Source of the DNA: a virus
Virus record (IMG/VR): IMGVR_UViG_3300002026_000009
Location: 1-64,000 of that record
Direction: 5' to 3' (one strand)
DNA length: 64,000 nucleotides
The notes beneath the pieces were generated by a model. It saw only the letters and a program-made list of their open reading frames with translations, was not told the origin of the DNA and did not search any database. Positions 27,076 through 64,000 of the stretch are shown in pieces. Every line of letters begins with the position of its first letter. The stretch's first letter is position 1. Made by a program: the position numbers and the translations under genes.

Positions 27076-27116
27076 GTAACAGTTACTTCATTTTTGGTAT
27101 AATAAAAGCCTGTTAC
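27076..27116 (+). ncRNA. Y-RNA-like module 4 (stem-loop only)
   Basis: GTAACAG/CTGTTAC stem enclosing TTACTTC... Confidence 0.3.
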
Positions 27117-27272: not shown

Positions 27273-27381
27273 TAAACAGTTACTTCTTAACCTCAATAGC
27301 CGTACCTGGGTTCGATTCCCAGCATCCCTAAACTGGGGTGTAATCTAATGGTAGGATTGGCTAACTAAAAAAGCCTGTTTA
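27273..27381 (+). ncRNA. Y-RNA-like module 5 with permuted tRNA-like domain (YrlA-type)
   Basis: Closing stem TAAACAG/CTGTTTA, then TTACTTC. T arm CTGGG-TTCGATT-CCCAG, acceptor CATCCCT-AAAC-TGGGGTG capped by a tetraloop, then TA and the D arm ATCT-AATGGTA-GGAT. Confidence 0.6.
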
Positions 27382-27405
27382 ATTTTTCTAGGATTACTTT
27401 ATATT

Positions 27406-27492
27406 GGAAGATGTGTTGCAAGGTGCGACATCGGTTTGCTAAACCGCCGTTCAGAAATGGGCTGATAGGTTCGATTCCTATATCTTCCGCCA
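27406..27492 (+). tRNA. tRNA-Ser (GCT)
   Basis: Class II. Acceptor GGAAGAT/ATCTTCC, anticodon loop TTGCTAA, variable arm CGTTCAGAAATGGGCTG, G73, CCA. Confidence 0.85.
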
Positions 27493-27505
27493 ACTAATAA
27501 ATATT

Positions 27506-27733
27506 ATGCACGACCCTAAATCGCTAGAAGCGTTCTTCTTAGAGTATATGCCTAGGACTAAAGAAGTTCTAGAGTCACTATGGGCTACAGATCGACGTGA
27601 GTTGTCCTAGGTTCTTCAAGAGTTTATGCGCGCAAGCGGAGAAAATTCTTGGATGTACCCGTATTTTTCCGATCTAGATTATTACACACGAACAGCACAA
27701 CATAAGTACACCAATCCCTGGGAAGTACTGTGA
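27506..27733 (+). CDS. hypothetical protein, 1 in-frame TAG (27608)
   Basis: MHDPKSLEAFF...RELS-TAG-VLQEFMRASG... The TGA stop overlaps the GTG start of the next gene. Confidence 0.45.
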
Positions 27734-27954
27734 GCAATATATCCACTGATTACGTCGCTAGTGATACCACTAGGCGACGTATTGTTGTTACTAGTCTCAT
27801 CCTTAGCTGGGCCATTATAGGCTGGCTAATTTTATACGGCAATCAATCTAATAGCCTACACGAATCGGCTTTAGCCTGGAGTTACGCGTACAATATTTTA
27901 GTACTATTTGCATATAGCTTTGGTACTATTATTAAAGACTACTTTAAGAAATAA
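27730..27954 (+). CDS. membrane protein (74 aa)
   Basis: ORF track entry. Two hydrophobic segments. Confidence 0.5.
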   Translation: MSNISTDYVASDTTRRRIVVTSLILSWAIIGWLILYGNQSNSLHESALAWSYAYNILVLFAYSFGTIIKDYFKK

Positions 27955-27955
27955 T

Positions 27956-28029
27956 ATCTCCTTAGTGTAATGGCAACACGTCGCGCTCCAAACGCGTTAA
28001 TCAGGGTTCGAGTCCTTGAGGGGATGCCA
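27956..28029 (+). tRNA. tRNA-Trp (CCA)
   Basis: Acceptor ATCTCCT/AGGGGAT, anticodon loop CTCCAAA, G73, CCA. Confidence 0.85.
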
Positions 28030-28035
28030 AAACCT

Positions 28036-28127
28036 GGAAAGTAGTGCAGCGGGGCTGGTCCTGCGACGAGCCTTGAAAACTCGGTTCTCAGAAATGGGAT
28101 GGGGTTCGACTCCTCTGCTTTCCTCCA
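28036..28127 (+). tRNA. tRNA-Ser (TGA)
   Basis: Class II. Acceptor GGAAAGT/GCTTTCC, anticodon loop CTTGAAA, variable arm containing CAGAAATGG. The D loop is long and position 73 is U. Confidence 0.7.
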
Positions 28128-28166
28128 ATTTTTAACCAGCGCCCACCGCGCAAAATTTAGCACATT

Positions 28167-28793
28167 ATGAGTAAAGATTCCAAAAGCATTGACCTTGATA
28201 ACATTGTTAGTGGAGGCTCTAATGTCTTTACTAAAACAGTTGCACGTGACTATAGCTTCTACCTTAGTGGAGAAATTCTAGAGCCTAGTGAATATATAGA
28301 GTGGTTTGATACTATTCGCACTGCTGGGCCCAACGACAGCGTAACCATTCACATTAATTAGATGGGTGGCAATCTAGATACAGCTATTCAGTTTATTCGT
28401 GTTCTAGGTGAGACTCAAGCAGAGGTTATTACTAGCGTTGAAGGTTCTTGCATGAGTGCAGCTACCATGATCTTTTTATAGGGTCATAGTCTACAGATTA
28501 CACCTTTTAGCCTTTTCATGTTCCACAACTATAGTGGAGGTGCCTTTGGTAAGGGCGGGGAAATGTACGACAACATTATGTTCGAACGTAAGTGGTCAAG
28601 TGAATTTTTACACCATGTTTACAAAGACTTCTTAACAGCAGAAGAAATTAATTCTATGCTAGATAATAAAGATATTTGGATGGGACATACAGAGGCGGAA
28701 GATCGCTGCCGTAAAATGATGAAGGCGCGTACCGCAGCAACAAAAGCTCAACAGTGTGAACTTGATATAGACGACGCAGATGACGCCAGTTAA
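28167..28793 (+). CDS. ClpP-like serine protease, 2 in-frame TAG (28359, 28479)
   Basis: ORFs 28167..28361 and 28518..28793 plus the piece between them share one frame. IHIN-TAG-MGG resembles ClpP INSPGG, GSCMSAA carries the Ser, and MFHNYSGGAFG resembles MIHQPxGG with the His. Confidence 0.7.
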
Positions 28794-28800
28794 TTAACAC

Positions 28801-28829
28801 TTGAATTGTCTGTTAAGTTTTGATATAAT
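28801..28829 (+). promoter_or_regulatory. promoter TTGAAT-N17-TATAAT
   Basis: Feeds the tRNA-Cys, Met and Arg block. Confidence 0.6.
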
Positions 28830-28838
28830 TATTCTTTA

Positions 28839-28913
28839 AATACAGTGGCCGAGCGGCGAGGCAAGTGATTGCAAATCACTATTATGTGGGTTCGAATCCC
28901 ATCTGTATTTCCA
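28839..28913 (+). tRNA. tRNA-Cys (GCA)
   Basis: Perfect acceptor AATACAG/CTGTATT, anticodon loop TTGCAAA, U73, CCA. Confidence 0.85.
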
Positions 28914-28914
28914 T

Positions 28915-28991
28915 AGTCAAGTAGCTCCAACGGTTAGAGTAACGGTTTCATACGCCGGCTGTTGTAGGTTCGAGTCCTACCTTGACTACCA
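28915..28991 (+). tRNA. tRNA (CAT): elongator Met or Ile2
   Basis: Acceptor AGTCAAG/CTTGACT, anticodon loop TTCATAC, T arm GTAGG-TTCGAGT-CCTAC, CCA. Confidence 0.8.
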
Positions 28992-28994
28992 AAT

Positions 28995-29069
28995 ACCTCG
29001 TTAGTACAACGGATAGTGCACTAGGCTACGAACCTGGGAATGTGAGTTCGATTCTTGCACGAGGTACCA
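28995..29069 (+). tRNA. tRNA-Arg (ACG)
   Basis: Acceptor ACCTCGT/ACGAGGT, anticodon arm CTAGG-CTACGAA-CCTGG, CCA. Confidence 0.85.
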
Positions 29070-29070
29070 T

Positions 29071-29196
29071 AAATAACCGCATACATCAGCTACAATGGAA
29101 CACCGATAGCCTATTACAAGTTCCGGATACGTAATAGGCAGGCCATGAAGAGTTAGAGCTGGCAGAAGTTTAAGCATTCAGTATGCGGTTATTTAT
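29071..29196 (+). other. 126-nt structured element closed by a 14-bp stem
   Basis: AAATAACCGCATAC (29071-29084) pairs with GTATGCGGTTATTT (29183-29196). An inner 9-bp hairpin GCCTATTAC/GTAATAGGC is present. The 3' arm covers the RBS and start of the next CDS. Confidence 0.4.
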
Positions 29197-29476
29197 GGCA
29201 AAAACATTTACATCTATTAAAAATCCAGCACTACAGCTAACTGACCAACTACCATTTGGTAAGTTTAAAGGCTGTAGAATTTGTGATATACTCGAGGACG
29301 ATTGGGAATATCTTAAGTGGATGAAGCAAAATACTAGCATTAACTTTAGCCGACCAGTACTTGACTCAATTACAGCGCGGTTTTCAGCTTGGGCAGATGA
29401 AACACACTATAACGAAGAAGTAGCCCCGTATCTTAACAATGATGCCGATATTGACCCAGAGGATGTACCATTTTGA
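29195..29476 (+). CDS. hypothetical protein
   Basis: ORF 29183..29476. Start at MAKTF. Confidence 0.55.
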   Translation: MAKTFTSIKNPALQLTDQLPFGKFKGCRICDILEDDWEYLKWMKQNTSINFSRPVLDSITARFSAWADETHYNEEVAPYLNNDADIDPEDVPF

Positions 29477-29700
29477 CTAAACGAGTATTTAAAACCGTAT
29501 CACTTAGCCCTAATACATCAACACAACGTAGTACTGAGTATATTCCTAGTCGCGTGACTTCTGGTGGTTCTACTGCTGCTAAGCCTGTAATGACGTATAC
29601 CGGACATGAAATGGTTGGCATTGCTATTATTCATAAAAGCTGCCTGCAACCTGTCTTTAGTAAAGAAGCAGCCGAAGATACCGCTAAAATGCGTAGATAA
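29473..29700 (+). CDS. hypothetical protein
   Basis: ATGA overlap. TAA stop. Confidence 0.55.
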   Translation: MTKRVFKTVSLSPNTSTQRSTEYIPSRVTSGGSTAAKPVMTYTGHEMVGIAIIHKSCLQPVFSKEAAEDTAKMRR

Positions 29701-29705
29701 ATAAA

Positions 29706-29779
29706 GCGTGGTTCGTTTAATGGTAGGACTTCTGCCTTCCAAGCAGATAGCAAGGGTTCGATTCCCTTACCCCGCACCA
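29706..29779 (+). tRNA. tRNA-Gly (TCC)
   Basis: Acceptor GCGTGGT/ACCCCGC, anticodon arm TCTGC-CTTCCAA-GCAGA, CCA. Confidence 0.85.
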
Positions 29780-29788
29780 AGGAAAATA

Positions 29789-30112
29789 ATGTATACATCA
29801 TATTATACTTATCTAGAAGAAACAAGTGTTCGCAGATCAAAGTATGCAGAACCAATTAACGATTTAGAACCCATGAGAACCAATCTTACAAACGATAACA
29901 TCGAAACCTACGTTCGTAAACACGCTTACATCGTAGCATCCATGTCCGATGCTGGTCTTAGCGTTGCCGAGGCTCCTGTAATTCATCCTACAATTATCGT
30001 AGCACGTGCAGAATGCCAACGTCTTGCTAAACTGAATCCTGGTAAAAACTTCATTGCCCTACAATTAGGCGCATTGGAGCGAGTAGCGTATCAGCCAAAC
30101 GTTTCAATTTAA
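29789..30112 (+). CDS. hypothetical protein
   Basis: ORF 29708..30112, trimmed to the Met after the tRNA (GGAAAA RBS). Confidence 0.55.
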   Translation: MYTSYYTYLEETSVRRSKYAEPINDLEPMRTNLTNDNIETYVRKHAYIVASMSDAGLSVAEAPVIHPTIIVARAECQRLAKLNPGKNFIALQLGALERVAYQPNVSI

Positions 30113-30116
30113 TCAC

Positions 30117-30145
30117 TTGATTCGTTGAAGTGTTTATTGTATAAT
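30117..30145 (+). promoter_or_regulatory. promoter TTGATT-N17-TATAAT
   Basis: Hexamers read directly. Confidence 0.55.
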
Positions 30146-30169
30146 TTATACTTCAACGGAGAAATTAAA

Positions 30170-30517
30170 ATGGAAAATATGCGTAAAATTGTTGTCCACG
30201 TTACTGCTGGTACTGGTATGGATAACTGGGAGTTCTACGAAGTAGACCCTAAGGTAGAGCGAGGCGTAATCGACAACTTTGCTGAAGAGGCCGCCATCGA
30301 ATGGGCAGATTCATATGGCATAGGCGACCCCGGCAATTACCCAGACGAGCAAGACTTCGAAGACGATGAAGATGGGTACTCTGATGCCATTGATGAATGG
30401 GAAGCAGCCAGCCACGACTGGGATCAAGTAGAAGGCTCATTCGAAGATTACGTTCCAGAAAAACACGATGGATACTCAATGACGGGTACTCCAGAGTTTC
30501 AACGCTTCTCTAGCTGA
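30170..30517 (+). CDS. hypothetical very acidic protein
   Basis: GGAG RBS before ATG 30170. The 3' end overlaps tRNA-Phe. Confidence 0.55.
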   Translation: MENMRKIVVHVTAGTGMDNWEFYEVDPKVERGVIDNFAEEAAIEWADSYGIGDPGNYPDEQDFEDDEDGYSDAIDEWEAASHDWDQVEGSFEDYVPEKHDGYSMTGTPEFQRFSS

Positions 30518-30579
30518 TGAGGTCATAGCAGTGGATTGAAAATCCATGGAAACAGGTTCGAGTCCTGTGGGAAGCACCA
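30504..30579 (+). tRNA. tRNA-Phe (GAA)
   Basis: Acceptor GCTTCTC/GGGAAGC, anticodon arm GTGGA-TTGAAAA-TCCAT, CCA. Confidence 0.8.
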
Positions 30580-30590
30580 TACAAATCAAT

Positions 30591-30776
30591 ATGACAACAC
30601 TATTTGCCTTATACATTTGGACAGTTGTAGGTGTAGGAGAAAGTCGCGTATCTAGCCTAGTTAAATACGACTGGCGATACAGTGGTGAGTATAAAACACT
30701 AGCTCATTGTGAGCGTGCTAGAACTGCATTAGGTCTAAAACCTGAAGTATCTAGATGTATAGACACAGGTAAGTGA
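30591..30776 (+). CDS. small secreted/membrane protein
   Basis: MTTLFALYIWTVVGVG. ORF 30546..30776 trimmed. Confidence 0.45.
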   Translation: MTTLFALYIWTVVGVGESRVSSLVKYDWRYSGEYKTLAHCERARTALGLKPEVSRCIDTGK

Positions 30777-30821
30777 TCATATTTTTAACCCTAAATTATA
30801 CCCTAATTCGGGGTTAAACAT

Positions 30822-30989
30822 ATGATAAGTAAAGATAAATTAGAAAAAGTAGCCGCTATAATTCATAAATTTAATACAGAGTATAAGTTTATAAAAGAGC
30901 CTGACTTTCCTCCATGTCCAATATGTGGGCGCATTATTTACTGCGGAGTAAATGAACTATGTTCATTGAAAGAATGTCCTAAAAAATGA
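30822..30989 (+). CDS. small CxxC...C protein (55 aa)
   Basis: PPCPICGRIIYCG...CSLKEC. ATGA overlap with the next gene. Confidence 0.4.
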   Translation: MISKDKLEKVAAIIHKFNTEYKFIKEPDFPPCPICGRIIYCGVNELCSLKECPKK

Positions 30990-31522
30990 GCAATATTTTT
31001 CTTATTAGTGATAGTCACTTCTCACACGAAAATAGCTGGAAAACCTTCAAGCTAGATGACGGAGTTACTCCAATGCGTCCATTTACCTCAACTGAGGAAA
31101 TGGATGAAACAATGGTAGATAATTGGAACCGTGTAGTACGTCCACAAGACAAAGTATATCATCTAGGTGATATTGCAATGTCTAAGCGTCCACTACATGC
31201 AATCATGCCTAGACTTAATGGAGAGAAAGTCCTTATTAAAGGCAACCATGATATTGAAAAAATTACTTGCTACCTCCAGTACTTTAAGGATGTTAGAGGT
31301 AGTCACATGCTCGATAGGTTGGCGCTTAGTCACATACCTATTCATCCTGATAGTCTATCTCGCTGGCGCGGCAACATTCACGGGCATTTGCACAACTACC
31401 ACGTAAAACTTCCTAACGGGTTATTCGACCCTAGATACGTTTGTGTTAGTGTAGAGCGTATTAACTATACTCCGATACCTTTCGAAGAAGTTAATACTAT
31501 GTTTAAGGCAAGAGGTCTTTAA
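30986..31522 (+). CDS. metallophosphoesterase (Ser/Thr phosphatase-like)
   Basis: Motifs ISDSHF, HLGDI, GNHD and GHLH. Confidence 0.7.
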   Translation: MSNIFLISDSHFSHENSWKTFKLDDGVTPMRPFTSTEEMDETMVDNWNRVVRPQDKVYHLGDIAMSKRPLHAIMPRLNGEKVLIKGNHDIEKITCYLQYFKDVRGSHMLDRLALSHIPIHPDSLSRWRGNIHGHLHNYHVKLPNGLFDPRYVCVSVERINYTPIPFEEVNTMFKARGL

Positions 31523-36058: not shown

Positions 36059-36403
36059 ATGAACAACTTTCTTAAAAATCTTACGTTCTATCAAACCAAT
36101 CAACGTGCTCTGGTTCAGGAACCTTTTTCATTTGAAGATAATTTTACAAATGTAAGGTATGTGGAAGAGCGTGTTGTGTACGAACTAGCAGCTAAAATTG
36201 GGGATCGAGTAGTAATTAGTGAGAGTATGGCTTCTGAAGCTAAGAATCTTATTAAACACAAACTCATGCGATCACTTAATGAGCACGTACATGGCGGGTA
36301 TAGACTACCACTATTAGATTTGTTTAGACACTTAGTCAAACGCGGTGACCAAGAAGGTATTAAGCAATTAGAAAAGATTATGGACGAAATGTTTAAAGTA
36401 TGA
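36059..36403 (+). CDS. hypothetical protein
   Basis: ORF 36047..36403. ATG at 36059. Confidence 0.55.
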   Translation: MNNFLKNLTFYQTNQRALVQEPFSFEDNFTNVRYVEERVVYELAAKIGDRVVISESMASEAKNLIKHKLMRSLNEHVHGGYRLPLLDLFRHLVKRGDQEGIKQLEKIMDEMFKV

Positions 36404-37362
36404 ACAAACAACAAATTTCCAACTATCTTGATCGGTGCAGCGATGCGTATTATGCGGGTAATCCTATTCTTGATGACGCTACCTTTGACAGTCTCGCTGA
36501 CCTTGTTGGTTACAACAGAGTGGGCGCTACGGTCACTAGCGGGAAGGTTCGACACCTCTATCAAATGTACTCGCTTCAAAAGCATTACGAAGATGAAGGT
36601 GCCCACCCTCTAAAAGGCTATACTGGTGGTATCTCTACCAGTCCTAAACTGGATGGTGCTGCAATCTCTATTCTGTATGTTGATGGTGCACTAACTCGCG
36701 TAACCACTCGTGGTGATGGGGTTGAGGGTCAGGACATTACAGATAAGTTCCTGACTACAAAGTCACTGATTCCCCACAATATTCCTAGTATCGGTACATT
36801 CCAGATTACTGGTGAGATTGTAGCCCCGAATCATATTGAGAATGCTCGTAACTACGCTGCTGGTGCTCTCAACTTGAAAGATGTTGCAGAGTTCAATACT
36901 CGCGCAATCGAGTTCTTCGCTTATGGTGTTCAGCCATACATTAGCGAGAGTTTTGTTACTGACATGCAGCAACTCAAGGCATGGGGATTCAATACAGTTT
37001 TCGAATCGGAAATTGATAAGATTTACCCTTGCGATGGTGTTGTACATCGTATCAACAGTAACAAAGTATTTGTTGAGTGGGGTTACACAGGTAAGCATCC
37101 CAAAGCTGCCTATGCTCTTAAAGTTCGGCAGCAAGCTGTTGAAACTAAGATTATTGGTGTTGAGTGGCAAGTCGGTAAGACAGGTCGCGTTTCACCAGTA
37201 GCTATTCTAGAACCTGTTATGATTGGTGACGCTCAAGTTAGCCGCGCTACTCTTAACAATCCTGGGTTTATCGAAATGCTTGGCATTGAGATCGGAGATA
37301 CAGTAGCCATTATTCGTAGTGGCGAGATCATTCCTAGAATCCTTCACAAGGTTGATGCATGA
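36400..37362 (+). CDS. NAD-dependent DNA ligase, N-terminal part (adenylation + OB)
   Basis: KxDG motif SPKLDGAAISI, and TRGDGVEGQDIT. Confidence 0.8.
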   Translation: MNKQQISNYLDRCSDAYYAGNPILDDATFDSLADLVGYNRVGATVTSGKVRHLYQMYSLQKHYEDEGAHPLKGYTGGISTSPKLDGAAISILYVDGALTRVTTRGDGVEGQDITDKFLTTKSLIPHNIPSIGTFQITGEIVAPNHIENARNYAAGALNLKDVAEFNTRAIEFFAYGVQPYISESFVTDMQQLKAWGFNTVFESEIDKIYPCDGVVHRINSNKVFVEWGYTGKHPKAAYALKVRQQAVETKIIGVEWQVGKTGRVSPVAILEPVMIGDAQVSRATLNNPGFIEMLGIEIGDTVAIIRSGEIIPRILHKVDA

Positions 37363-37598: not shown

Positions 37599-38354
37599 AT
37601 GAAAATTGACATTCCTACACATTGCCCATGTTGCAGTGAGCCACTCGAATTTACTAACGATCAGTTATTTTGTGTTAACTCTAGTTGCCCAGCACAGCTT
37701 TACAAGCGGGTTGAGCATTTTACAAAAACTCTTGGCATTAAAGGATTTGGCTCTAAAACTATCGAAAAACTAGCCCTAGATTCAATCCCCGAGATTTATT
37801 ATTTAGAATTTGAAGATGTAGCCGCTGCCCTGGGCAGTGAGCGTATGGCAGAAAAATTATTACTCGAAATTGAGGCTAGCCGAAATGCCTCACTAGACAA
37901 GGTACTGGCTGCATTTTCAATCCCTCTTATCGGACAAACGCTGTCAACACGGCTTTGTCAAGTAGTCAATAACATTGACGAAATTACAGCCGAAGCTTGC
38001 AATTCCGCAGGTTTAGGTGCTAAAGCTACAGCCAACTTGATCGGTTGGTTGAATACAGAATTTCTAGAGGTCAGAGAGTTTTTACCCTTTGACTTTAAGA
38101 CTTCTGGAACTGCCAGCAACACAGATAACGGTAAAAGTATCTGTATTACTGGTAAACTCGTTACCTTTAAAACCAAAGCAGAAGCCACAACAGCCCTAAC
38201 AACGGCTGGATACAAAGTAGTAGAGTCAGTAACAAAACAAACAGACATGCTAGTGGACGAAGGCGATAAAGGTAGCGCAAAACGTAAACGTGCCGAAGAA
38301 CTCGGTATTCCTATTATTACAAATCTCAAAGATTTTTTGAAAGAAAACAAATGA
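37599..38354 (+). CDS. NAD-dependent DNA ligase, C-terminal part (Zn finger, HhH, BRCT)
   Basis: CPCCSEPLEF...CVNSSCPAQ, HhH-like repeats, and a C-terminal BRCT-like ITGKL... Confidence 0.75.
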   Translation: MKIDIPTHCPCCSEPLEFTNDQLFCVNSSCPAQLYKRVEHFTKTLGIKGFGSKTIEKLALDSIPEIYYLEFEDVAAALGSERMAEKLLLEIEASRNASLDKVLAAFSIPLIGQTLSTRLCQVVNNIDEITAEACNSAGLGAKATANLIGWLNTEFLEVREFLPFDFKTSGTASNTDNGKSICITGKLVTFKTKAEATTALTTAGYKVVESVTKQTDMLVDEGDKGSAKRKRAEELGIPIITNLKDFLKENK

Positions 38355-51403: not shown

Positions 51404-51590
51404 GTATAAAACATAGTATGAATGGTATCGTACTCTACAAAGTCCAGTAATATTAGACCCAGATGGTTGGGATAGAGCTAACTTTAAATACTCTTTCCAT
51501 GAGGAAGAAATAACTAAAGAAGAGTATCTACACAGACATAGTAGGTCTACTACCTTAGTTTATCCAGTAGAGGCGGAAAATCATGGTTGA
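51396..51590 (+). CDS. hypothetical small protein, 1 in-frame TAG (51414)
   Basis: GTG 51396 is the only possible start. There is no start codon downstream of the TAG. The stop forms ATGGTTGA with the next gene. Confidence 0.45.
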
Positions 51591-52035
51591 CCCACGCGCC
51601 AAAGGCGCCAGGGCAGAAACTGTAATTAGAGATGCACTACGCAAACATACAGGGCTGCAGTGGGAACGAGTACCGGGAAGTGGTGCTCTTGACCCTAAGC
51701 ATAAGCTAAAAGGAGACATTTATGTTCCTAATGCAAATAACCTGTACTGCGTGGAGGCAAAACATTATGCTGAGGATCATCTTACAAGTGCTGTGCTAAC
51801 AAGTAAGAATCCTCAGCTAATGCAGTTCTGGGAACAAACAGTTCGTGAGAGTTAGCAGGTCGATAAAGAACCGTTATTAATCTTTAAGCATGATCGTAGT
51901 AAGCTGTTTGTAGGATTTAAAGATTTCCCAAGTGGTAACTATAATTATATGTTTATACATCACTCAACACATGAGTTCTATGTAGCCTTGTTAGATGATT
52001 GGCTACAACACGAAAGCATAAAATTTACAACTTAA
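51583..52035 (+). CDS. PD-(D/E)XK nuclease, putative Holliday-junction resolvase, 1 in-frame TAG (51853)
   Basis: GDIYV...VEAKH motif. ORF 51583..51855 continues in frame to the TAA at 52033. Confidence 0.6.
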
Positions 52036-52111: not shown

Positions 52112-52810
52112 ATGCAAAAAATGGCAGGTATTTATAAGCTTTTATACAAAACTGGTCACTATTATATTGGTCAGAGCGTTAATTTAAGTAGTAGAAAATT
52201 AAATCACTATAAAATGTTAATGCTTAAAAAGCATCATAGCTATAAGATGCAGGAGCATTATGATACACACCAGGAGCTACCTGAATTCATAGTCGTTAAA
52301 TATTGCGATATCAATGATCTTAATGCTGAAGAATCATCCTTAATAAAGTTAGATGATCCATTATGCTTAAATGTAAAAGCCGGTGGAGACAATAATTACG
52401 GATATGAAGCTATAGGTGCTAAGTACCTAACAGCTGATATTGAAGTAGCATTTTTACTTTTGGTAAACAATCCTGGTATTTCACACAAAGAAGTTGCCGA
52501 TATCTCTGGTATAGATATTTCTACAGTACATGATATTAGTGCAGGTAGAAATAGAGTGTTCACGGAAATGAGTAAGATATATCCGGAACTATATGCGCAG
52601 TTGTTAAAACAAAAAGCCCCTAATACACGTGGCAAAACTACTATCATGCTGCAGCATGAAGATGGTAGACAAATTACCTTAATAAGTGGGCAATACTAGG
52701 ATTTTTGCAGAAACTATGGGGTTCAATCCTCTAACCTTTCCAAAGTTGTACAAGGTAAAAGAACATCTACAATGGGGTGGAAACTTATAAATAAATATGA
52801 AAACTTTTAA
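52112..52810 (+). CDS. GIY-YIG homing endonuclease, 1 in-frame TAG (52697)
   Basis: MAGIYKLLYKTGHYYIGQSVNLSSRKLNH... After the TAG comes the typical C-terminus ...GKRTSTMGWKLI. Confidence 0.7.
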
Positions 52811-56805: not shown

Positions 56806-56827
56806 AGTTTTTTAAATGGAGACTATT

Positions 56828-57727
56828 ATGGAAATAAATTCGGGAATATACATATTATACTTTGAATGCGACGATGGTATGTACTACGTAGGCAAATCAT
56901 CAAATATATCAGCTAGATACTATGAGCATTGTAGAAAACTAATGTACGGGTCACATATTAACAAAGCGCTTAGTCGTGGATATAATAAATATGGTGAAGT
57001 ACCTACATTATTTAGGTTAGAAGAAGTATAGGTAGAAAAGCAATCTGAAAGAGAAATTTATTGGATAGCTACATTAGATACGTATAAGAATGGAATGAAC
57101 GCTACTTTAGGTGGTGATGATCTAGGATATGGAGCAAATACTCCTAGTTCACTATATGAAGAAGATACATATATAAAAATACTGTAGGAATTGGCTAATA
57201 CAGATAAGTCTTTACGTGATATATAGATTGATTTAGATGTATCTTATTAGGTTGTTCAAAAAATATCTAATTTCTCAGAACATACCTGGTTAATAGAAAA
57301 GTATCCAGAACTAGCTGCTAAAGTTAAAGAAAAATGTGGTAATAGAAAAGGATATATTGCAGACTCCTAGGTATATGAAAATATTATGAGACTTAGAGCC
57401 TATACAGATATTTCAAACGTAGAGATAGCCGAAAAATGCGGAGTTAAATTATCTGTAGTACGCAATATTATATATGCACAAAATCATCTCTACTTAAGGG
57501 ATAAATTTCCTACTGAGTGGAACTTAATGTATGCGAAACGTGGTACTATACTAAAAGGTAAGAAAGATACTGAGGAATATCCTAATATCAAAGACAAGGA
57601 TGGTAATGTATATAAGATATAGGGTTCGTGCAAGGCATTTAGTGAAGCACATGGATTAGACTATACACATCTACATAAAGTACTAAGAGGTAAAGCTCTA
57701 AGTCATAGGGGCTGGACTCTTGCGTAA
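56828..57727 (+). CDS. GIY-YIG homing endonuclease, 6 in-frame TAG
   Basis: One frame of 300 codons reads SGIYILYFECDDGMYYVGKSSNISARYYEH...HRGWTLA, with six TAG and no TAA or TGA. The ORF track shows only two fragments. Confidence 0.65.
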
Positions 57728-57768
57728 TAAAAAAGCCGCCAAAGCTATTTAGCTTTGGCGGCTTTTTA
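57728..57768. terminator. bidirectional terminator (13-bp stem)
   Basis: AGCCGCCAAAGCT-ATTT-AGCTTTGGCGGCT flanked by A and T runs, between convergent genes. Confidence 0.8.
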
Positions 57769-57769
57769 C

Positions 57770-58495
57770 TTAATAATGACGGTAGGCTTTTAATACCTTT
57801 TTACATACACCGCTACGAATACAATCATCATCAGTAAATTGTATTACTTCTACTTCGTCTAGATGGCGAAGTTTACCAATGGCATCTTCTAACCCTGTGG
57901 CATCAATTCTATCACGTTGACCAACGTCACCATTAATCATCATTTTAGTATTATTACCAATACGTGTTAGCAACAGCTTCATTTGCATTGGCGTTGCCTA
58001 TTGCATCTCATCTGCCAATATAATGCAGTCTTTAAAGGACCTGCCGCGCATGAATGCTAGAGGGACTGGTTCGATTGTACCAATCTTAAGACAGTATTCA
58101 ACAAAACTCTTACCCAATAGTTCGTTTAAAGTCTCCATATATGGAACTAGATAGGGTAACATCTTGCCTTCAACAAGATCTCCTGGTAAGAATCCTAGCT
58201 CTTCGCCGCAAGCTTCTACAGCTGGGCGAGTAAGGATTATCTTATTTACTCGTCTATAATATAGTTGCTCTGCTGCATAGTGTGTACTAACATACGTTTT
58301 ACCAACCCCCGCATCACCTAGTGCGAATACAATATCCTTAGTATTTAGTGCATCTATATAATCTTGTTGACGATATGTCTGCGCTTCTAGTTTAGGAAAT
58401 TTCTGAGCCGGTTTGCGGTCTGCAGGAGATTGATAGCCCATATCTTGTACCATCTGTGTAGTACGACGAGCTTTTTTACCAGAGGAAGTAGCCAT
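57770..58495 (-). CDS. phoH: PhoH-like ATPase, 1 in-frame TAG (57998-58000)
   Basis: ORFs 57998..58495 and 57770..57988 are in frame. Walker A GDAGVGKT. ...ILADEMQ-TAG-ATPMQMKLLLTRIGNN matches the family pattern DEAQN..QMK..LTR.G. Confidence 0.8.
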
Positions 58496-58503
58496 GTGAT
58501 TCC

Positions 58504-59057
58504 TTAGTTATTTAAAAGAGGTACGTATTTATGTATACGTACATTTAGTACATCATGTACATGATGATTGTTAATATCCCTAGCACTGCGATTAGCATAT
58601 AGTACTTTACGGGATTTAACGTTATATAGTTCAACGTTGTTAAACCAATATCTGTGATTGCAAGAGGCGCTAAGGTTGCACGCTACGCGTGAACGCCGCA
58701 CATCACTAACACCTCCATTATACGCGCTATCTGCAAAAGCTAGCGGCTCGTGCGTGTCTAGGAATAATGAGTAATTGGCTCGACTCATTAGTATCATAGT
58801 GCGTATTTGAAGATCTGGACGACTATAGATAGTACTCCAGTTTAGCTCACCTAACTCTTGTGGCCAACGACGACGCGCATCTTGCAGCGAATCAAATCGT
58901 AGGCTTCCATCTTCTCGCCAGGCTCTTGTAAGCTGCCCAAGGCCCGCACCCTCTTCTTTTGAAGTTTTAAGCCGCGATTGTGGGTTCCAACATTTGGAGT
59001 GCTTAAGGTGCTGGCAGCTTTCATGTTCGATTAGACTGGCGAGATATGCTTTTTTGG
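58504..59057 (-). CDS. lytic transglycosylase (SLT) domain, reached by -1 shift at A_AAA_AAG
   Basis: This frame reads KKAYLASLIEHES...GLGQLT...AYNGG, and it has no start codon of its own before Met 58797. Confidence 0.6.
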
Positions 59058-59450
59058 TACGTTAGGCCAGTATGTGGCTACCTCACTGGCAAGTACTGGT
59101 AGGTGTATTTTAGCTTGTGCCGGAATATACGTCTTAACATCTTGAGCCCGCGCCGATGGACCAAATAATCCGTAGATAGCCATAACGAATAGGCACATGC
59201 CTAAGAAGGTAATAGCCTACCCAATAGACTACTTCTTGGCCTCGTCGTACAGGTCGCCCATATCTACATACGGGAAAAGTAGTTTACGCAGCCAATGTCC
59301 AGCTAGAACTACCAGGATTGGTGTAGTTAGGTAGATTAAGAATTCCTACGTAATTGCCCCGGCTGTAGGGTCTGTTACATATTTAACAACCAATAGTAGT
59401 AGTGTAACTACTAATAGGGATAGGTTACGTTTATTGAAGTAAGGTTTCAT
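59031..59450 (-). CDS. 3-TM membrane protein (holin-like), 3 in-frame TAG, zero-frame product
   Basis: MKPYFNKRNLSLLVVTLLLLVV... with TAGs at 59346, 59229 and 59217. Ends PKKHISPV-TAA. ATGA-coupled to the upstream ORF. Confidence 0.5.
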
Positions 59451-59617
59451 CTTCTGATTTGTCCTATTAGCTGATCTAGTACATTGTCTATACGATCTAG
59501 ACGTTTCTACATACTTTCAATATGCTACTCTAGATCACGAGCACGCTACTCTAAGTGCGCAATATGTTCTCGTGCATTTGGTGTTAAACCTAGTACACGT
59601 AGTATCCAATTTTTCAT
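59447..59617 (-). CDS. small coiled-coil protein, 3 in-frame TAG
   Basis: ATGA overlaps at both ends. MKNWILRVLGLTPNAREHIAHLE-TAG-RARDLE-TAG-HIESM-TAG-KRLDRIDNVLDQLIGQIRR. Confidence 0.5.
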
Positions 59618-59871
59618 TGTACTACATCCTTTACTGCTTCAATAAGCTTTTTATGGCGTAACCTGCACTCACCATACTGTTCAATGTACTGCAAGTCTTC
59701 GTGCAGCAGATCTTGTAGCGCTATAGGACTTAGAGTTTTTAACTCTGGGCATTGTAATAATAATTCCGCAGGCACATTTACACGTTTTAATACCTCTACA
59801 CGTTCAATAACTGGAGGATTGTGGTTGCAAGCCGCTAAGATTGGTAAAAGAAGAAAGATTAAGTATTTCAT
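59614..59871 (-). CDS. o-spanin (outer-membrane lipoprotein, Rz1-like)
   Basis: Lipobox LLPILAAC. ATGA overlap with the i-spanin gene. Confidence 0.7.
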   Translation of the reverse strand: MKYLIFLLLPILAACNHNPPVIERVEVLKRVNVPAELLLQCPELKTLSPIALQDLLHEDLQYIEQYGECRLRHKKLIEAVKDVVQ

Positions 59872-60224
59872 TTGTTAGCTCTTTCTATAATCTTGCGGCG
59901 CGCTTCCAATAATTGCTCACTTGCTACACAGTCACCTTCACGAACCACTACTAGTGGCCCACTTTCTTTTAGTGCTGCGCGTATTTGTTGAGTATCTTGT
60001 ATTAATGCATTAATTTCTTTTGTTAGATCAACAGATCTTAGGCTTAGTGCTTTATTTACTACTGCAGTTTGGTTGTCTAAGGCTGTACGATATTCTGCAA
60101 CTTGTTTTGTATACTGCTCTGCTGCTGCTAATTCACCTGCTCTATATCCCGTAGTAGACCCTAAATAGTATACAAGGGCTAGTATTGCAGCTAGTGCTAC
60201 CACTATAATTATATTTTGTTTCAT
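59868..60224 (-). CDS. i-spanin (Rz-like)
   Basis: N-terminal TM segment IIIVVALAAILALVYYL followed by a coiled coil. Confidence 0.7.
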   Translation of the reverse strand: MKQNIIIVVALAAILALVYYLGSTTGYRAGELAAAEQYTKQVAEYRTALDNQTAVVNKALSLRSVDLTKEINALIQDTQQIRAALKESGPLVVVREGDCVASEQLLEARRKIIERANK

Positions 60225-60262
60225 TTTAGCCCTAAGAATTTAGGTACGGTTAATAGTAGCTT

Positions 60263-60715
60263 CTAGATAAATCCACCTATTTTACTTTTATCTGTCATAC
60301 CACTAATAGGCTGTTCCCAAACAGCGGCAGCTACCTCAGCTGGAGTAATAGAACTGCCACTAGTAGCAATACCTTGTGCTTGTACAGGTACTGTTAGTTT
60401 TACAAGAACGTTGTAGTTACCTACAGTAGGAACGACTGGGTCACCACCGCCATCTACGAATAAATTGCCGGTAATATTTAATACTTGGGTAGCTTCCATT
60501 GGTCGTACTCGCCAGCCGTTTGCTAGAAAGTAGTATGGTGGAATTGATAGTCCACTGCCCAAGCCATCGCCACCTACAGAAGTAAAGGCAGGCAGATACT
60601 TTAGGTTATCTGCCTGACTAGCCCAGTCGACCCAAGTAGCATATATACTCTGTGCAGTAACATTAGTACTATCTAGTATAATTAGCTTATTAACGGGGTC
60701 GATTGTATATGCCAT
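60263..60715 (-). CDS. tail-fibre-associated structural protein (may extend to 60221 through TAG)
   Basis: The ORF ends in TAG. Reading through adds 13 codons and ends in a TGA that overlaps the i-spanin ATG. Confidence 0.55.
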   Translation of the reverse strand: MAYTIDPVNKLIILDSTNVTAQSIYATWVDWASQADNLKYLPAFTSVGGDGLGSGLSIPPYYFLANGWRVRPMEATQVLNITGNLFVDGGGDPVVPTVGNYNVLVKLTVPVQAQGIATSGSSITPAEVAAAVWEQPISGMTDKSKIGGFI

Positions 60716-60718
60716 ATA

Positions 60719-62083
60719 TTATGCGTAAACGCGATCTTGTTCTGCAACCAAGGATAGAGAGATTGCTTTACTCTTTGTTAGCGTACCAGTTGCGACTGCA
60801 AACTTACCTGTACCAGGTTTTACACCAATTAGTGTTACTGCACGATCTGTACCAGGCGTCGCACCGCCCTGAGTATTACCATCGTAGTCGTACGTAAATG
60901 ATATTGAACCACTAGAGATAGTACCTGCGATAGGTGTGCCGCTTGCGTCGTTGACGGTAATTGCACCGCTTTCGCCGTAGTCATTGCCAGCACCTGGAGG
61001 AGCTGTAAACATAAGGCGATAACTTGAACCTGCGCCAACCAGCACGCTGTTAAAGGTCATAGTACCGGCTGCACTGTATGGATATGTACGTGTTACACCG
61101 TTTTGGTCTTTAAACTCAATACGGTTGGTATCAGCTGAAAGTAGGTTTTCAACGAACACACCGGTTGTTGTTTGTAGGGTATCACCAACGAAGCCTAATA
61201 GGGCTGCTGCAGTTTTACCGTTTACGGTACCGGCTCCTGCGTCTATATCGCTATCTTGACGTAGTAAGTATTGAACCTTAGTATAGATTTGTTCTAGCGT
61301 AGCGTTATTACCATTAATAACAACACGGAATGGATAACTACCACCACCAATTGTTTTGTTCTGGTCACTACCATAGTACGTAATTGTAATACCACTATAA
61401 GGGGCACCACTCATTGCAGCATCATTAGCTTGAATCTTTAAGTCATCTTCGTTAGAAAGTAGCAAGTTAACAATGTTAGCACCGGTCGACGTTTTACCCG
61501 TATCGGCTAGAACAGAGTCTTTGTATTTTTTACCGTATTCACGAACGAAGCCTTTAAAGTAACTACGCTTATCAAAGTTACCATTGCTGGCATCCCCAAA
61601 AACTTGAATACCTTCGTTACATTGGTCTGTAAAGGTAAAGTTAATTGGCGCGTCTGTTGAAGCACGCTGGTAATACAGCTGAGCACCGGTTGACACACCA
61701 CCCAGGCCTACAATACCTACGTATTGACGTTGTAGTACGCCCGCTGCGGAGAATTCACTCCAGCCACCATCGCGTAACATTTGACGAGTAGCATCGGCGT
61801 TAAATGTCCAACCACTAAAAGTTGAACCATCAGTACCAATTTGGAACTGACCAGATAACGCGTCGATTGCGTATGCAGGGAATGGGCTATCTTGATATGT
61901 TGAGGTAGCCCACAGGTCCACCAATTTAGAGTATAGAGCCTGCCAGGTTACACCATCTTTCGCTATAAGACCGTTAGTTGTAGAACCGTCGGCGCTTGCT
62001 AGCAATTGGATAGTCTTGGCTGTCTCGTTAATTACTAGGTTTGTGCCAACTACCAGTTGGCTTTTACTTGTTAGTTTTGCCAT
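60719..62083 (-). CDS. tail fibre / structural protein
   Basis: 454 aa, rich in Gly, Thr, Ser, Asn and Ala. GGAG RBS. Confidence 0.6.
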   Translation of the reverse strand: MAKLTSKSQLVVGTNLVINETAKTIQLLASADGSTTNGLIAKDGVTWQALYSKLVDLWATSTYQDSPFPAYAIDALSGQFQIGTDGSTFSGWTFNADATRQMLRDGGWSEFSAAGVLQRQYVGIVGLGGVSTGAQLYYQRASTDAPINFTFTDQCNEGIQVFGDASNGNFDKRSYFKGFVREYGKKYKDSVLADTGKTSTGANIVNLLLSNEDDLKIQANDAAMSGAPYSGITITYYGSDQNKTIGGGSYPFRVVINGNNATLEQIYTKVQYLLRQDSDIDAGAGTVNGKTAAALLGFVGDTLQTTTGVFVENLLSADTNRIEFKDQNGVTRTYPYSAAGTMTFNSVLVGAGSSYRLMFTAPPGAGNDYGESGAITVNDASGTPIAGTISSGSISFTYDYDGNTQGGATPGTDRAVTLIGVKPGTGKFAVATGTLTKSKAISLSLVAEQDRVYA

Positions 62084-62148
62084 GTTTAGGCTCCATAGTT
62101 ACGGTCGATTGTTTGAGCTACTGGTAGGCTAGCATTTGTAGTACCTAG

Positions 62149-64000
62149 CTAGTAGTTGCGAATGTATAGTGGTACATATCCTGGCTTGATAACACCGATA
62201 TCTACCGGCTGTGCAGTTTCATATTCGTACACCCAACTAGAACCAGCATAATTATCCACTGATGCTATAATATTTGTTGTCCCAGCTTGTAGAATGACAA
62301 CATCAGAACCAGATACCAATCCAGTCAATGTTAGCTTAACTGTGTCTAATGGATAACTGTTATCAGTGTGAGCTGCGTAGTTAGACCAGCCGTTGAATCT
62401 AATAACAGTGATCGCAGTGGCAATTGCTGTTACACAAGTAACTTTTACCTTGAATCTAGTTCCTGCTGGATTTGGGGTTTCATCCGGAAGATGATTGAAG
62501 TAAACAATACCCGACGCAGTACCGGTATTAGCTCTAGTCAGTGTGACTGTGGTTCCGACTACTGATACAACTCTATTACGCTGAGCGATGTTAGTACCAC
62601 CGTACAACCAATCCCCGGGTGAAATACCAGTTGTATTAGCGATAGTAATAGTAAATGCACCGTTAGCACCTGTGTTTACGGTTTTGACTCTAGACAGGTT
62701 CTTGAATGTACCACTAAACCCTGAGCCAGTATCAATATCGTATTCAAGTAAGAAGTTAGATAAAGTGCTACCAGCTAATGTTGGAGCTAAGTATTCATCG
62801 AACCCAGTGAACCCTTTGGCAAAGTAAGGCATTTCCCATACAGCAGATGTTCCTACTACACCCATCAAAACCCCACCACTGGAGTTAAACTTAGGTGTTC
62901 CAGATAACACTGTATAGTAAGCTGCTGTGTCTGTTGTGGGCTCGTTCATCCGTAGAGTAATGTTACCCGTGCCTCTAGAGAACGTGGTCATGAAGTGATG
63001 ACCATAAACCGAAGCTTGCCCAGATACACCGGGAATACCGCCGAAACCTTTTAGTTGCGCATTGAGGTTAGCTGGATTGATTAGTTCAATACCAAAAGTA
63101 TTGAGAGCATTGTCATTTTGCTTGTAAACGTTTTCGTATGTTACTCCAGTATCAGAGTTAATGAACGTTGTTACTGTGCTTCTAACCCGGTCTACGTAGC
63201 AGTTCTGTAATCTGTAGTTAGAGCAGTTACCGCCAGTAACAAACAATCCACCCATGCCCATGGTATTAGGATTCCAACTTCCACACTTCAATGGATTGGT
63301 TTTTGTACCTAGATTTCTGAATGTTACATTATTTGCTCCACCTCCAATACGAGCAGCAGTGCTAGATGGATGGCAGTTAGGTATAGTATCATTCATGCCG
63401 AATGTCAAACCATCAACAACTACATCTGATGATCTAGTATCAATGTTGATAGCAGAATATCCACCTGTTGCATTTGTGTATCCAGTGAATCTATCACAAT
63501 AGTCTGTATTGTTGATCCGCACTTTGTTACTCGTAGTAACTAAGATCTGACTGTTGAATGTCTTATTATTGTTTAAGGTTATGTTGTCACATGAAGATAA
63601 GTTAAACGAATATCCGGAACTTCTGGCGTATTGAATAATACCAAACTCACAATCATTGAACGTCAAATTATTACAGAAGTTGACGTTCACAGCGTGGTCT
63701 GATGTTCCCGGAGTATTGCCACGTTTCAACGTGGCATTGGTGATAGTACCACCTGAGAAATTAGAAGTAAGCAACAGTGTGTTAATGTCTAAGCTACCAT
63801 ACATCCCTACGCCGACATTATCTAACGTCATAGCAGTAGCACATTCAGAAATTTGCAATGTATCCATGTGCCAATTGTTTATAAGACGTACACTATATGC
63901 TTGACCGAACGTAGCTGCCCAGTTATTGTTGCAGAAGAATTCTAGATCAATAGCACCCGCAGAGGTTGTTGTAAACTCAGGTCTAGTACCTTGAGTACCG
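62149..64000 (-). CDS. tailspike-like beta-helix protein (5' end outside window)
   Basis: Repeated N-x-T/N-N motifs typical of right-handed beta-helices. The frame stays open upstream of Met 63867 to the window edge. It ends in TAG, and readthrough would add 20 codons (TAG plus 19 sense codons) before the TAA at 62086. Confidence 0.6.
   Translation of the reverse strand, partial: GTQGTRPEFTTTSAGAIDLEFFCNNNWAATFGQAYSVRLINNWHMDTLQISECATAMTLDNVGVGMYGSLDINTLLLTSNFSGGTITNATLKRGNTPGTSDHAVNVNFCNNLTFNDCEFGIIQYARSSGYSFNLSSCDNITLNNNKTFNSQILVTTSNKVRINNTDYCDRFTGYTNATGGYSAINIDTRSSDVVVDGLTFGMNDTIPNCHPSSTAARIGGGANNVTFRNLGTKTNPLKCGSWNPNTMGMGGLFVTGGNCSNYRLQNCYVDRVRSTVTTFINSDTGVTYENVYKQNDNALNTFGIELINPANLNAQLKGFGGIPGVSGQASVYGHHFMTTFSRGTGNITLRMNEPTTDTAAYYTVLSGTPKFNSSGGVLMGVVGTSAVWEMPYFAKGFTGFDEYLAPTLAGSTLSNFLLEYDIDTGSGFSGTFKNLSRVKTVNTGANGAFTITIANTTGISPGDWLYGGTNIAQRNRVVSVVGTTVTLTRANTGTASGIVYFNHLPDETPNPAGTRFKVKVTCVTAIATAITVIRFNGWSNYAAHTDNSYPLDTVKLTLTGLVSGSDVVILQAGTTNIIASVDNYAGSSWVYEYETAQPVDIGVIKPGYVPLYIRNY

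Follow-up and report, generated by a model that had tools for sequence, protein, structure and literature searches.

Gene organisation of the window and of its lysis block

The present contribution deals with the codon TAG inside the genes of a T5-like (Demerecviridae-like) phage, in particular inside its lysis genes, and with the suppressor transfer RNA (tRNA) that presumably decodes it. The stretch of DNA studied, in the following called the window, comprises positions 1 to 64,000 of the IMG/VR record IMGVR_UViG_3300002026_000009; our census of genes and codons covers this 64-kb window of a ~100-kb genome (100.5 kb), and the capsid, portal and terminase genes lie outside of it. The early gene set of the T5 type is present: ribonucleotide reductase (RNR), SbcC and SbcD (D12/D13), Pol A, thymidylate synthase, a D5-like regulator, two helicases, a DnaB-like helicase, a primase and an NAD-ligase in two parts, as well as 26 tRNA genes on the plus strand between 18 and 30.6 kb. 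Of these, the tRNA cluster, the split NAD-ligase, the D5-like regulator, SbcCD, Pol A, the DnaB-like helicase and the primase are hallmarks of T5-like phages. The best cultured matches of Pol A are Vibrio T5-like phages with 51% identity, and a megablast search of the lysis region (57000-62000) against the cultured-phage collection gave no match. Pol A is 63-94% identical to that of uncultured IMG/VR contigs (referred to by L numbers), several of which are ~100 kb in size and syntenic; for the lineage of L001 and L025 the Pol identity amounts to 94-96%; in the syntenic standard-code relatives L105, L111, L112 and L113 the RNR is 83-86% identical to that of the window. A PhoH-based search for close relatives yielded no confirmed match, and ORF-length metrics (ORF, open reading frame) as a test for recoding in the relatives were confounded by GC-rich contigs and gave no usable result.

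The lysis block is located on the minus strand and is followed by a gene for a PhoH-like ATPase. Its first gene in the direction of transcription codes for an i-spanin (59868-60224) with an N-terminal transmembrane segment (TM) and a coiled coil, which matches PHROG 8821 weakly and is found at the same position in L112. The o-spanin gene (59614-59871) follows with the lipobox LLPILAAC and matches to PHROG 2425 and 456 ('Rz-like spanin'). Neither gene contains a TAG, and the pair shows the arrangement of a two-component spanin, that is the TM of the i-spanin, then the lipobox cysteine of the o-spanin, in adjacent and not embedded genes. Next comes a small ORF of 56 codons (59447-59617), predicted to be helical or a coiled coil, which carries TAGs at 59548, 59527 and 59509 and has ATGA overlaps with its neighbours at both ends; it has no Pfam or PHROG family match and is not present in the syntenic relatives. 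The endolysin gene is located between this ORF and the PhoH gene (57770-58495, minus strand, 241 codons), the TAG of which (58000-57998) lies in the motif DEMQ-TAG-ATP. Pfam gave no match for the lysis proteins, the identifications being provided by the PHROGs. The original prediction had counted seven in-frame TAGs in this region, one in PhoH, three in an ORF with three TMs and three in the small ORF, and translation of the minus strand between 60800 and 57700 reproduced these counts exactly. Downstream of PhoH, a GC-rich hairpin read from the sequence (GCCGCCAAAGC-TAAATA-GCTTTGGCGGC, followed by a T-run; 57729-57767) separates it from a converging homing endonuclease gene (HEG) and reads as a two-way intrinsic terminator. 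In a comparison of 57700-60300 with Rfam only weak matches appeared, all of them on this hairpin.

TAG as a sense codon

A gene map in which TAG was permitted as a sense codon comprises 102 genes and 16,780 codons, and 35 in-frame TAGs were found in these ~16,800 codons (0.2% of codons). The genes end in TAA (61) or TGA (40) and never in TAG (0/102), whereas in 19 related loci 9.7% of the long ORFs are terminated by TAG (P ~3e-5). The interrupted genes are interrupted by TAG alone, never by TAA or TGA. Homology of PhoH crosses the TAG, with 98% of the query aligned in one piece (tblastn, 3339 phage records); the profile matches of a UvdE-like and a ClpP-like protein span their TAGs, GIY-YIG domains run across TAGs (Pfam), and for the two TAGs that are located near gene ends (60265 and 62151) the downstream sequence is conserved in homologs. 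Because homology continues through the TAGs, no gene ends in TAG and a tRNA with the anticodon CUA is present, TAG is best understood as a sense codon; as judged from these sequence features, the window is a case of reassignment with the TAG terminators purged rather than one of occasional suppression. The nucleotide that follows the TAG is unbiased (G 14, A 9, C 7, T 5; background frequencies 0.33, 0.31, 0.19 and 0.17), and the TAGs are found between 0.05 and 0.96 of gene length without an overall N-terminal bias. No gene for a release factor or an aminoacyl-tRNA synthetase was seen among the proteins screened, a screen that was not exhaustive.

A suppressor tRNA of probable serine type

The tRNA with the anticodon CUA was detected by ARAGORN at 23199-23285 on the plus strand. 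It is 87 nt long, has a long variable arm, G73 and an encoded CCA end, and reaches 48 bits with the Rfam model RF00005, the gathering score of which is 29. Its closest counterpart in architecture is the tRNA-Ser(GCU) of the phage itself (27406-27492, plus strand), with 60% identity and the same 87-nt layout. The variable arms of the two are near-identical (CGGTCAGAAATGGCC in the suppressor, CGTTCAGAAATGGGC in tRNA-Ser(GCU)) and the G73-CCA end is common to both, in contrast to the phage tRNAs for Tyr and Leu with A73. Seryl-tRNA synthetase recognises the long variable arm, the acceptor stem and G73, but not the anticodon.

Alignments point in the same direction. In three solved ClpP structures the serine of INSPGG is found opposite the first TAG of the ClpP-like gene, and at the YIGQ-TAG motif of one HEG (19902-20630) the paralogs carry Ser or Thr. 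Across the homolog alignments the residues opposite TAG are mainly S, T, A, N or G, while Gln and Tyr are rare. Based on the tRNA identity elements together with the alignments at the TAG positions, TAG is most likely decoded as serine by the phage tRNA(CUA), an assignment that is indirect but well supported. Read in this way, the PhoH protein would have the sequence DCIILADEMQ[S]ATPMQMK across its TAG; PhoH homologs carry Asn at this position (16/16).

The suppressor was found in none of the tRNA regions of 15 relatives (0/15), a search of IMG/VR with exact and degenerate suppressor patterns gave six matches, none of which contains a tRNA, and a pattern scan of JGI metagenomes gave nothing. 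A 'tRNA-Pyl(cta)' reported by ARAGORN in L121 was rejected as apparently spurious, since it has neither a T-loop nor CCA.

Distribution of TAG among gene classes

The TAGs are distributed very unevenly. The highest density is found in four GIY-YIG HEGs with 19 TAGs in 1022 codons (18.6 per 1000), which is 54% of all TAGs (19/35); counted by gene, this enrichment has P=3e-4. PhoH and the lysis block follow with 7 TAGs in 821 codons (8.5 per 1000), as compared to ~0.6 per 1000 codons in the remaining non-HEG genes. Lower values were obtained for a tail-like module (2 in 1214 codons; 1.6 per 1000), the tRNA-region genes other than HEGs (4 in 2945; 1.4 per 1000), the left end (1 in 1114; 0.9 per 1000), the replication-region genes other than HEGs (2 in 7396; 0.3 per 1000) and a leftward block at 6431-14656 (0 in 2268 codons of 19 scored genes; 0 per 1000). 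With the HEGs left out, PhoH and the lysis genes hold 7 TAGs where 0.83 are expected (binomial P=8e-6), and the replication region is depleted (P=0.004); by gene, TAG is present in 3/5 of the PhoH and lysis genes versus 15/101 overall (P=0.02). The TAG-free leftward block is weak evidence when taken alone (P=0.08). The enrichment in the lysis block is real, but it is the second-strongest signal after that of the HEGs.

The original prediction had described TAG as concentrated in the lysis cassette and absent from the early genes. An enrichment in the lysis block was borne out by codon and by gene, and so was the absence of in-frame TAGs from the leftward early block and from Pol A, the helicases, the primase, both ligase halves, RNR and SbcCD. 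A general absence from the early genes could not be upheld, as the four HEGs and ~6 further TAGs in other genes of the early region show, and the main location of TAG is the HEGs rather than the lysis block.

Sequence divergence was taken into account by comparison with L112. Identity to the L112 counterparts is 52-57% for SbcC, SbcD, helicase and exonuclease, 40% for PhoH, and in the endolysin 38% for the N-domain and 57-58% for the catalytic domain. In this divergence-matched contrast, 4 TAGs were counted in the 556 codons of PhoH and endolysin and none in the 1638 codons of the other four genes (P ~0.004 for all four to come by chance into the smaller set). Since the two sets differ in TAG at comparable divergence, drift alone is insufficient to explain the bias.

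Homing endonucleases and other genes with TAG

The HEG with the largest number of TAGs (22488-23213, plus strand) has 10 of them in 242 codons, and its Pfam GIY-YIG domain (residues 3-81) extends across two. This gene shares its last 15 nt with the 5' end of the gene for the suppressor tRNA; the two are physically joined and may move together. The other three, likewise on the plus strand, have six TAGs (56816-57727, inserted between the RNR operon and PhoH in comparison to the syntenic relatives), two TAGs (19902-20630) and one TAG (52112-52810, missing in the relatives L002 and L003). The four HEGs are mutually 27-31% identical and have no TAG position in common. The 6-TAG HEG and the small lysis-block ORF are both missing in relatives of the L112 type, and the most TAG-rich genes are, to judge from synteny, lineage-specific insertions.

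Further carriers in the tRNA region are the UvdE-like endonuclease gene (20688-21647, plus strand; TAG at 21012), which matches PHROG 8420 in full length across the TAG (E=5e-72), and the ClpP-like protease gene (28167-28793, plus strand; TAGs at 28359 and 28479; PHROG 1827). A conserved gene between SbcC and the exonuclease (51583-52035, plus strand) has a TAG at 51853, where the orthologs carry GGA (Gly) in L002 (81% identical) and GAA (Glu) in L003 (69%), and an HNH-like gene has a TAG at 3568. Two carriers belong to the tail-like module upstream of the spanins. The conserved protein of 164 codons (60221-60715, minus strand) has its TAG at 60265-60263; a TGA that follows 14 codons later overlaps the ATG of the i-spanin, and homologs (L136, L145, L161-163) align over residues 1-164. 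The protein of 593 codons (62086-63867, minus strand) has a TAG at 62151-62149; its homologs align through the TAG to residues 591-593 and carry T (27), A (18) or S (11) opposite of it. Its predicted sequence around the TAG, read as Ser, is NY[S]LGTTNASLPVAQTIDR, and its repeat pattern looks beta-helix- or tailspike-like.

An endolysin gene split by a probable -1 frameshift

The ORF with three TMs had been regarded in the original prediction as a separate, holin-like gene; in our analysis it turned out to be the 0-frame part of a frameshifted endolysin gene. This part (59031-59450, minus strand) has 139 codons, encodes three TMs and the start of a periplasmic domain, contains TAGs at 59348-59346, 59231-59229 and 59219-59217 and stops with TAA at 59033-59031. 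Shortly before the stop, the slippery heptamer A_AAA_AAG (59049-59055, minus strand; 0-frame codons CCA AAA AAG, junction at 59057-59049) connects it to an open stretch in the -1 frame (58504-59052, minus strand) that codes for a lytic-transglycosylase-like domain (LIEHES ... GAGLGQLT ... AYNGG). Joining of the two by a -1 shift gives a protein of 315 aa with the predicted trans-frame sequence ...YWPNVPKKAYLASLIEHESCQHLK, while the 0-frame product would end in ...VPKKHISPV.

In alignments the 0-frame ORF corresponds to the N-terminal third of homologs (more than 1500) that are encoded by a single ORF and have 300-330 aa, and the joined protein finds >1500 full-length single-ORF homologs with 46-52% identity and 96-98% coverage. 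The alignment of the endolysin homologs has no gap at the frame junction, with E144 and S145 invariant, and the match to PHROG 669 'endolysin' (residues 106-309) extends over this junction. The catalytic domain is 35-42% identical to annotated signal-arrest-release (SAR) endolysin transglycosylases. With these features the gene is predicted to encode a membrane-anchored lytic transglycosylase of the SAR type of ~315 aa. The 139-aa product of the 0-frame, with its three predicted TMs, may well act like a holin.

The same arrangement was found in nine IMG/VR contigs of the T5-like clade (L073, L102, L104-106, L110-113), in which the break into the -1 frame falls on the identical codon, with C_CCA_AAG or C_CCA_AAA as heptamer and a 0-frame stop 6-7 codons further on; none of the nine has a TAG in the endolysin gene. 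Because the gene breaks at the identical codon in nine independent contigs, the heptamers of which differ from that of the window, we rejected a sequencing error or a pseudogene and consider the frameshift at A_AAA_AAG to be probably programmed and conserved. A start of its own for the catalytic domain was rejected as well for the window, L073, L102 and L113, in which there is no ATG, GTG or TTG upstream of the catalytic Glu in the -1 open stretch; some relatives do have a TTG or GTG there. The case for frameshifting is weakened by the lack of a downstream stimulator, as the RNAalifold consensus amounts to only -1.8 kcal/mol with 5 pairs and neither an Rfam frameshift element nor an upstream element of the Shine-Dalgarno type was found.

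Transcription and timing

A candidate sigma-70-like promoter close to the consensus (11/12; TTGACC-17-TATAAT) is located at 21631-21659 upstream of the suppressor gene, and a terminator-like site at 23602-23621 downstream of the suppressor ends its unit. The lysis genes are located at the end of a minus-strand operon that they have in common with the tail-module genes, with the same synteny in L112, and the minus-strand block has no sigma-70-like site comparable to those of the tRNA region. This suggests that the suppressor tRNA would be made with the early genes and before the lysis mRNA. With the tRNA early and the lysis mRNA late, a lock by TAG would therefore add little delay beyond that of late transcription; it could nevertheless lower the yield or block expression outside of the translation environment of the phage itself. 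The original prediction had inferred that the holin and endolysin region cannot be translated in full until the suppressor is active. This applies to the full-length endolysin, the small ORF and PhoH, which need the tRNA wherever the host release factor RF1 stops at TAG.

In the region 17000-31000, twelve sigma-70-like sites of at least 10/12 were counted as consensus matches only, eleven of them on the plus strand and most with TATAAT in its exact form. The sites are similar to the strong early promoters known in T5.

Possible explanations for the TAG pattern

We consider it most probable, with a likelihood of about 60%, that TAG has been reassigned to sense, most likely serine, and is tolerated in mobile, late and low-demand genes while it is excluded from core early genes. 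TAG would be tolerated where little product is needed, where the product is made late or where its need depends on conditions, as in the HEGs, the lysis block, the tail-like module and a few accessory genes of the early region, and it would have been purged from the core genes of replication and nucleotide metabolism and from all gene ends. Presumably, host RF1 competes with the suppressor, and each TAG would lower the yield and tie translation to the phage tRNA; selection would then remove TAG from those genes whose product is required early or in large amounts. In the lysis genes this would add a translational lock to late transcription, and synthesis of the full-length endolysin would require three suppression events and one -1 frameshift.

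Several observations speak against this model. The acceptor stem of the suppressor (GGAGTAG/CTACTCC) is that of the phage tRNA-Tyr(GUA) (18047-18129), so that the tRNA looks chimeric, with a Tyr-type acceptor stem and a Ser-type variable arm and discriminator. The Asn, Ala, Gly or Glu that homologs carry opposite several TAGs is compatible with Ser without proving it. The T5-like Aeromonas phage AhSzq-1 has replication genes full of TAG, and avoidance in early genes is thus no rule for recoded T5-like phages. Finally, the numbers are small (16 TAGs outside of the HEGs), and the census covers 64 kb, whereas it is TAG use in the genes for capsid, portal and terminase that would distinguish 'late' from 'low-demand'.

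An alternative that we regard as considerably less probable is that the TAGs of the lysis genes represent an evolved timer, in which lysis is timed by the accumulation of the suppressor or is prevented from taking place too early or under the control of the host. The significant enrichment in the lysis block, which persists in comparison with the divergence-matched early genes, is in agreement with it, and the same bias is independently present in crAss-like and Agate phages. Moreover, all three TAGs of the endolysin gene are upstream of the catalytic domain, and a stop at any of them would yield an inactive protein. A timer does not account for the TAGs elsewhere, which are the majority and include those of the HEGs and of the ClpP-like and UvdE-like genes beside the tRNA in the early region, nor for the spanins, which are TAG-free. 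The position of the suppressor in an early cluster behind a strong sigma-70-like promoter leads one to expect the tRNA before the lysis mRNA, the syntenic relatives lyse without TAG in these genes, and the TAGs are found at variable residues.

It is also conceivable, although we find it doubtful, that TAG is neutral and, once a suppressor was present, has accumulated by drift or hitch-hiking in DNA that evolves rapidly or was acquired from elsewhere, without selection on expression or timing. The TAG-rich HEGs, and possibly the suppressor as well, would be derived from a more heavily recoded phage. The HEGs and the small ORF are insertions that the relatives do not have, the 10-TAG HEG overlaps the suppressor gene, and the HEG paralogs share no TAG positions. 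In the endolysin the TAGs are found in the poorly conserved N-domain (38% identity versus 58% in the catalytic domain), and the residues opposite TAG are often one mutation off (Glu, Lys, Gln, Ser). Neutral accumulation should, however, have reached the equally diverged SbcC, SbcD, helicase and exonuclease genes as well, and these have no TAG (P ~0.004); the loss of all TAG terminators would need selection, and searches of IMG/VR and the JGI metagenomes revealed neither a donor nor another copy of the suppressor. It appears unlikely to us that a natural TAG-to-Ser code was seeded by a HEG-borne suppressor and that the output of a holin-endolysin fusion is set by three ambers and then by the conserved -1 frameshift; the two would constitute a lysis clock at the level of translation alone, and a lock by which HEGs and lysis genes stay silent in any translation environment but that of the phage itself.

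Still less likely, the TAGs could be leaky stops that generate nested products, the ratio of which drives lysis: termination at codon 74 or 78 would give a holin-like protein with two TMs, readthrough the 139-aa protein with three TMs, and readthrough with the -1 shift the enzyme. TAGs 2 and 3 are in fact located at the boundary that corresponds to the one between 'holin' and SAR-type endolysin in YuA- and Sonora-like phages, and the conserved frameshift already implies two products. On the other hand, the relatives with the frameshift have no TAG at this place, most members of the family are single ORFs, and the first TAG (codon 35) would yield merely a fragment of 34 aa.

Decoding of TAG as Gln, on which the deposited annotation is based, is very improbable. 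In recoded gut phages the codon is usually assigned to Gln, and the NCBI-derived protein P0121 from a 100,539-bp contig corresponds to the small ORF of the window with Q at its three TAGs; the deposited genome has therefore been annotated with translation table 15. However, the sole tRNA(CUA) is of type II with G73 and an arm of the serine type, Gln is found opposite TAG in just 7 of ~300 aligned residues, and TAG coincides with conserved Ser positions. Gln was rejected on these grounds, and so was Tyr, which is rare opposite TAG as well. An artefact or gene decay, with the interrupted genes being pseudogenes or sequencing errors, can practically be dismissed in spite of the A6 homopolymer at the frameshift site and the frequent decay of HEGs, given a HEG of 242 codons with 10 TAGs and no other stop, a frameshift that nine independent contigs show at the identical codon but with another heptamer, and the presence of a matching tRNA.

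Comparison with known recoded phages and suppressors

The arrangement to which the original prediction had alluded, namely recoded lysis genes together with replication genes in standard code, is that of Borges et al. (10.1101/2021.08.26.457843), who found recoding preferentially in lysis genes, in a tail gene beside them and in the homing endonuclease of an intron in an early region and proposed a role in the timing of lysis. The analogy is a reasonable one. The bias of lysis versus replication genes in the window matches their description. The crAss-like, Lak, Agate and Jade phages of that study resemble the window in that they encode a suppressor tRNA, keep the standard code in their replication genes and show recoding in lysis, tail and HEG genes. 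The window differs from them in its affiliation to a T5-like environmental lineage, in a TAG that is predicted to be Ser instead of Gln and in the sparse use of TAG (0.2% of codons); furthermore, HEGs are the main carriers and the suppressor is located in an early tRNA cluster and not beside the lysis genes. A Borges-type bias is present, yet 19/35 TAGs are in HEGs and ~6 in other genes of the early region, and the late structural genes are outside of the window.

The assumption that such recoding had not been described for a T5-like phage did not stand: Cook et al. 2024 (PMC11210395, Table S1) list the Demerecviridae genus Shenzhenvirus (MG676224, MG676225) under table 15, and we confirmed dense TAG and a tRNA(CUA) in AhSzq-1. 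The Aeromonas phages AhSzq-1 and AhSzw-1 have, like the window, a T5-like genome, a tRNA cluster with tRNA(CUA) and many in-frame TAGs. Unlike the window, AhSzq-1 uses TAG densely and in replication and tail genes (helicases 15-16, the pb2-like gene 65), and its tRNA(CUA) has a short arm and G3:U70 and is located beside tRNA-Ala. AhSzq-1 is not closely related to the window, as there is no megablast match for the lysis region and the best cultured Pol matches are Vibrio phages. In the AhSzq-1 record (MG676224; L212/L213) this tRNA is located at 62795-62869, beside tRNA-Ala(UGC), and by its sequence it looks like an alanine-type tRNA rather than one for Gln. The residues of window orthologs opposite AhSzq-1 TAGs (A 9, K 8, V 6, Q 5) are weak evidence in this respect.

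Amber suppressors that insert serine are supD/serU of E. coli and psu1 of phage T4, the latter being derived from a T4 tRNA-Ser. Like the suppressor of the window, they combine the body of a tRNA-Ser with a CUA anticodon, and the change of the anticodon keeps serine charging. They are laboratory mutants that rescue nonsense mutations, whereas the tRNA gene of the window is fixed, with at least 13 genes dependent on it. A description of TAG being read as Ser in a phage was not found in a limited literature search.

The lysis cassettes of YuA-, M6- and Sonora-like phages have the same order (spanins, holin, SAR endolysin transglycosylase) and a homologous catalytic domain (35-42% identity). In these phages the holin is a separate gene, whereas in the window and >1500 metagenomic homologs two N-terminal TMs, a SAR-like TM and the enzyme form one gene, and in the T5-like clade this gene is split by a probable -1 frameshift. 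Programmed -1 frameshifting at X_XXY_YYZ is established for dnaX (A_AAA_AAG), for transposases of the IS3 family and for the tail chaperone G/GT of phages. With frameshifts of the dnaX type the window shares an in-register heptamer, a conserved position and a 0-frame end a few codons further on; it differs in that the site is in a lysis gene and in that neither a conserved hairpin nor a stimulator of the Shine-Dalgarno type was detected. For endolysin and holin genes a limited literature search brought up no case of frameshifting.

In summary of these comparisons, TAG recoding in a T5-like phage and recoding with a bias to lysis genes and HEGs and TAG-free replication genes are already known, while TAG as Ser, the sparse mosaic pattern and the frameshift in the endolysin gene look new. 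If the serine assignment is true, it represents a phage assignment that we have not found described, and the deposited Gln annotation mistranslates at least 13 genes. The window represents an independent replicate of the lysis-gene and HEG pattern, with replication genes not recoded, in a lineage that is related to a classic model phage, and as the temporal classes of that phage are well understood, the timing hypothesis becomes testable by a handful of codon swaps. The sparse state with 35 codons may be an early stage of a code change and bears on the question of how a reassignment begins. The conserved frameshift, if true, would be a new route to holin-like and enzyme products from one gene.

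Further observations on the window and its relatives

The Pol A region is interrupted, with the polymerase domain at 42027-43745, an HNH endonuclease gene at 43992-44888 and two small conserved ORFs at 45175-46033; the HNH gene is missing in the relatives L001 and L025. The two halves of the NAD-ligase are encoded at 36400-37362 and 37599-38354. ARAGORN found a tmRNA gene with ANDxxxALAA-like tag peptides in the tRNA clusters of the related contigs L115, L116, L119 and L120 and none in the window.

The tail-like module is a unit of three genes (60221-63867; 593, 454 and 164 codons) without a Pfam or PHROG match. It is conserved in ~80 very diverse viral contigs of 20-170 kb, and contigs without any other relationship have its 454-aa protein with up to 78% identity. 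Exact look-ups of this protein and of P0121 returned no record, and a look-up by cluster yielded no accession. In L189 (IMGVR_UViG_3300035661_000023; 97 kb, 2417-11434) an in-frame TAG is located opposite a Ser of this 454-aa protein (70% identity), and the same contig has an open frame of 2495 codons that holds 9 TAGs; L189 may be another sparsely TAG-recoded relative.

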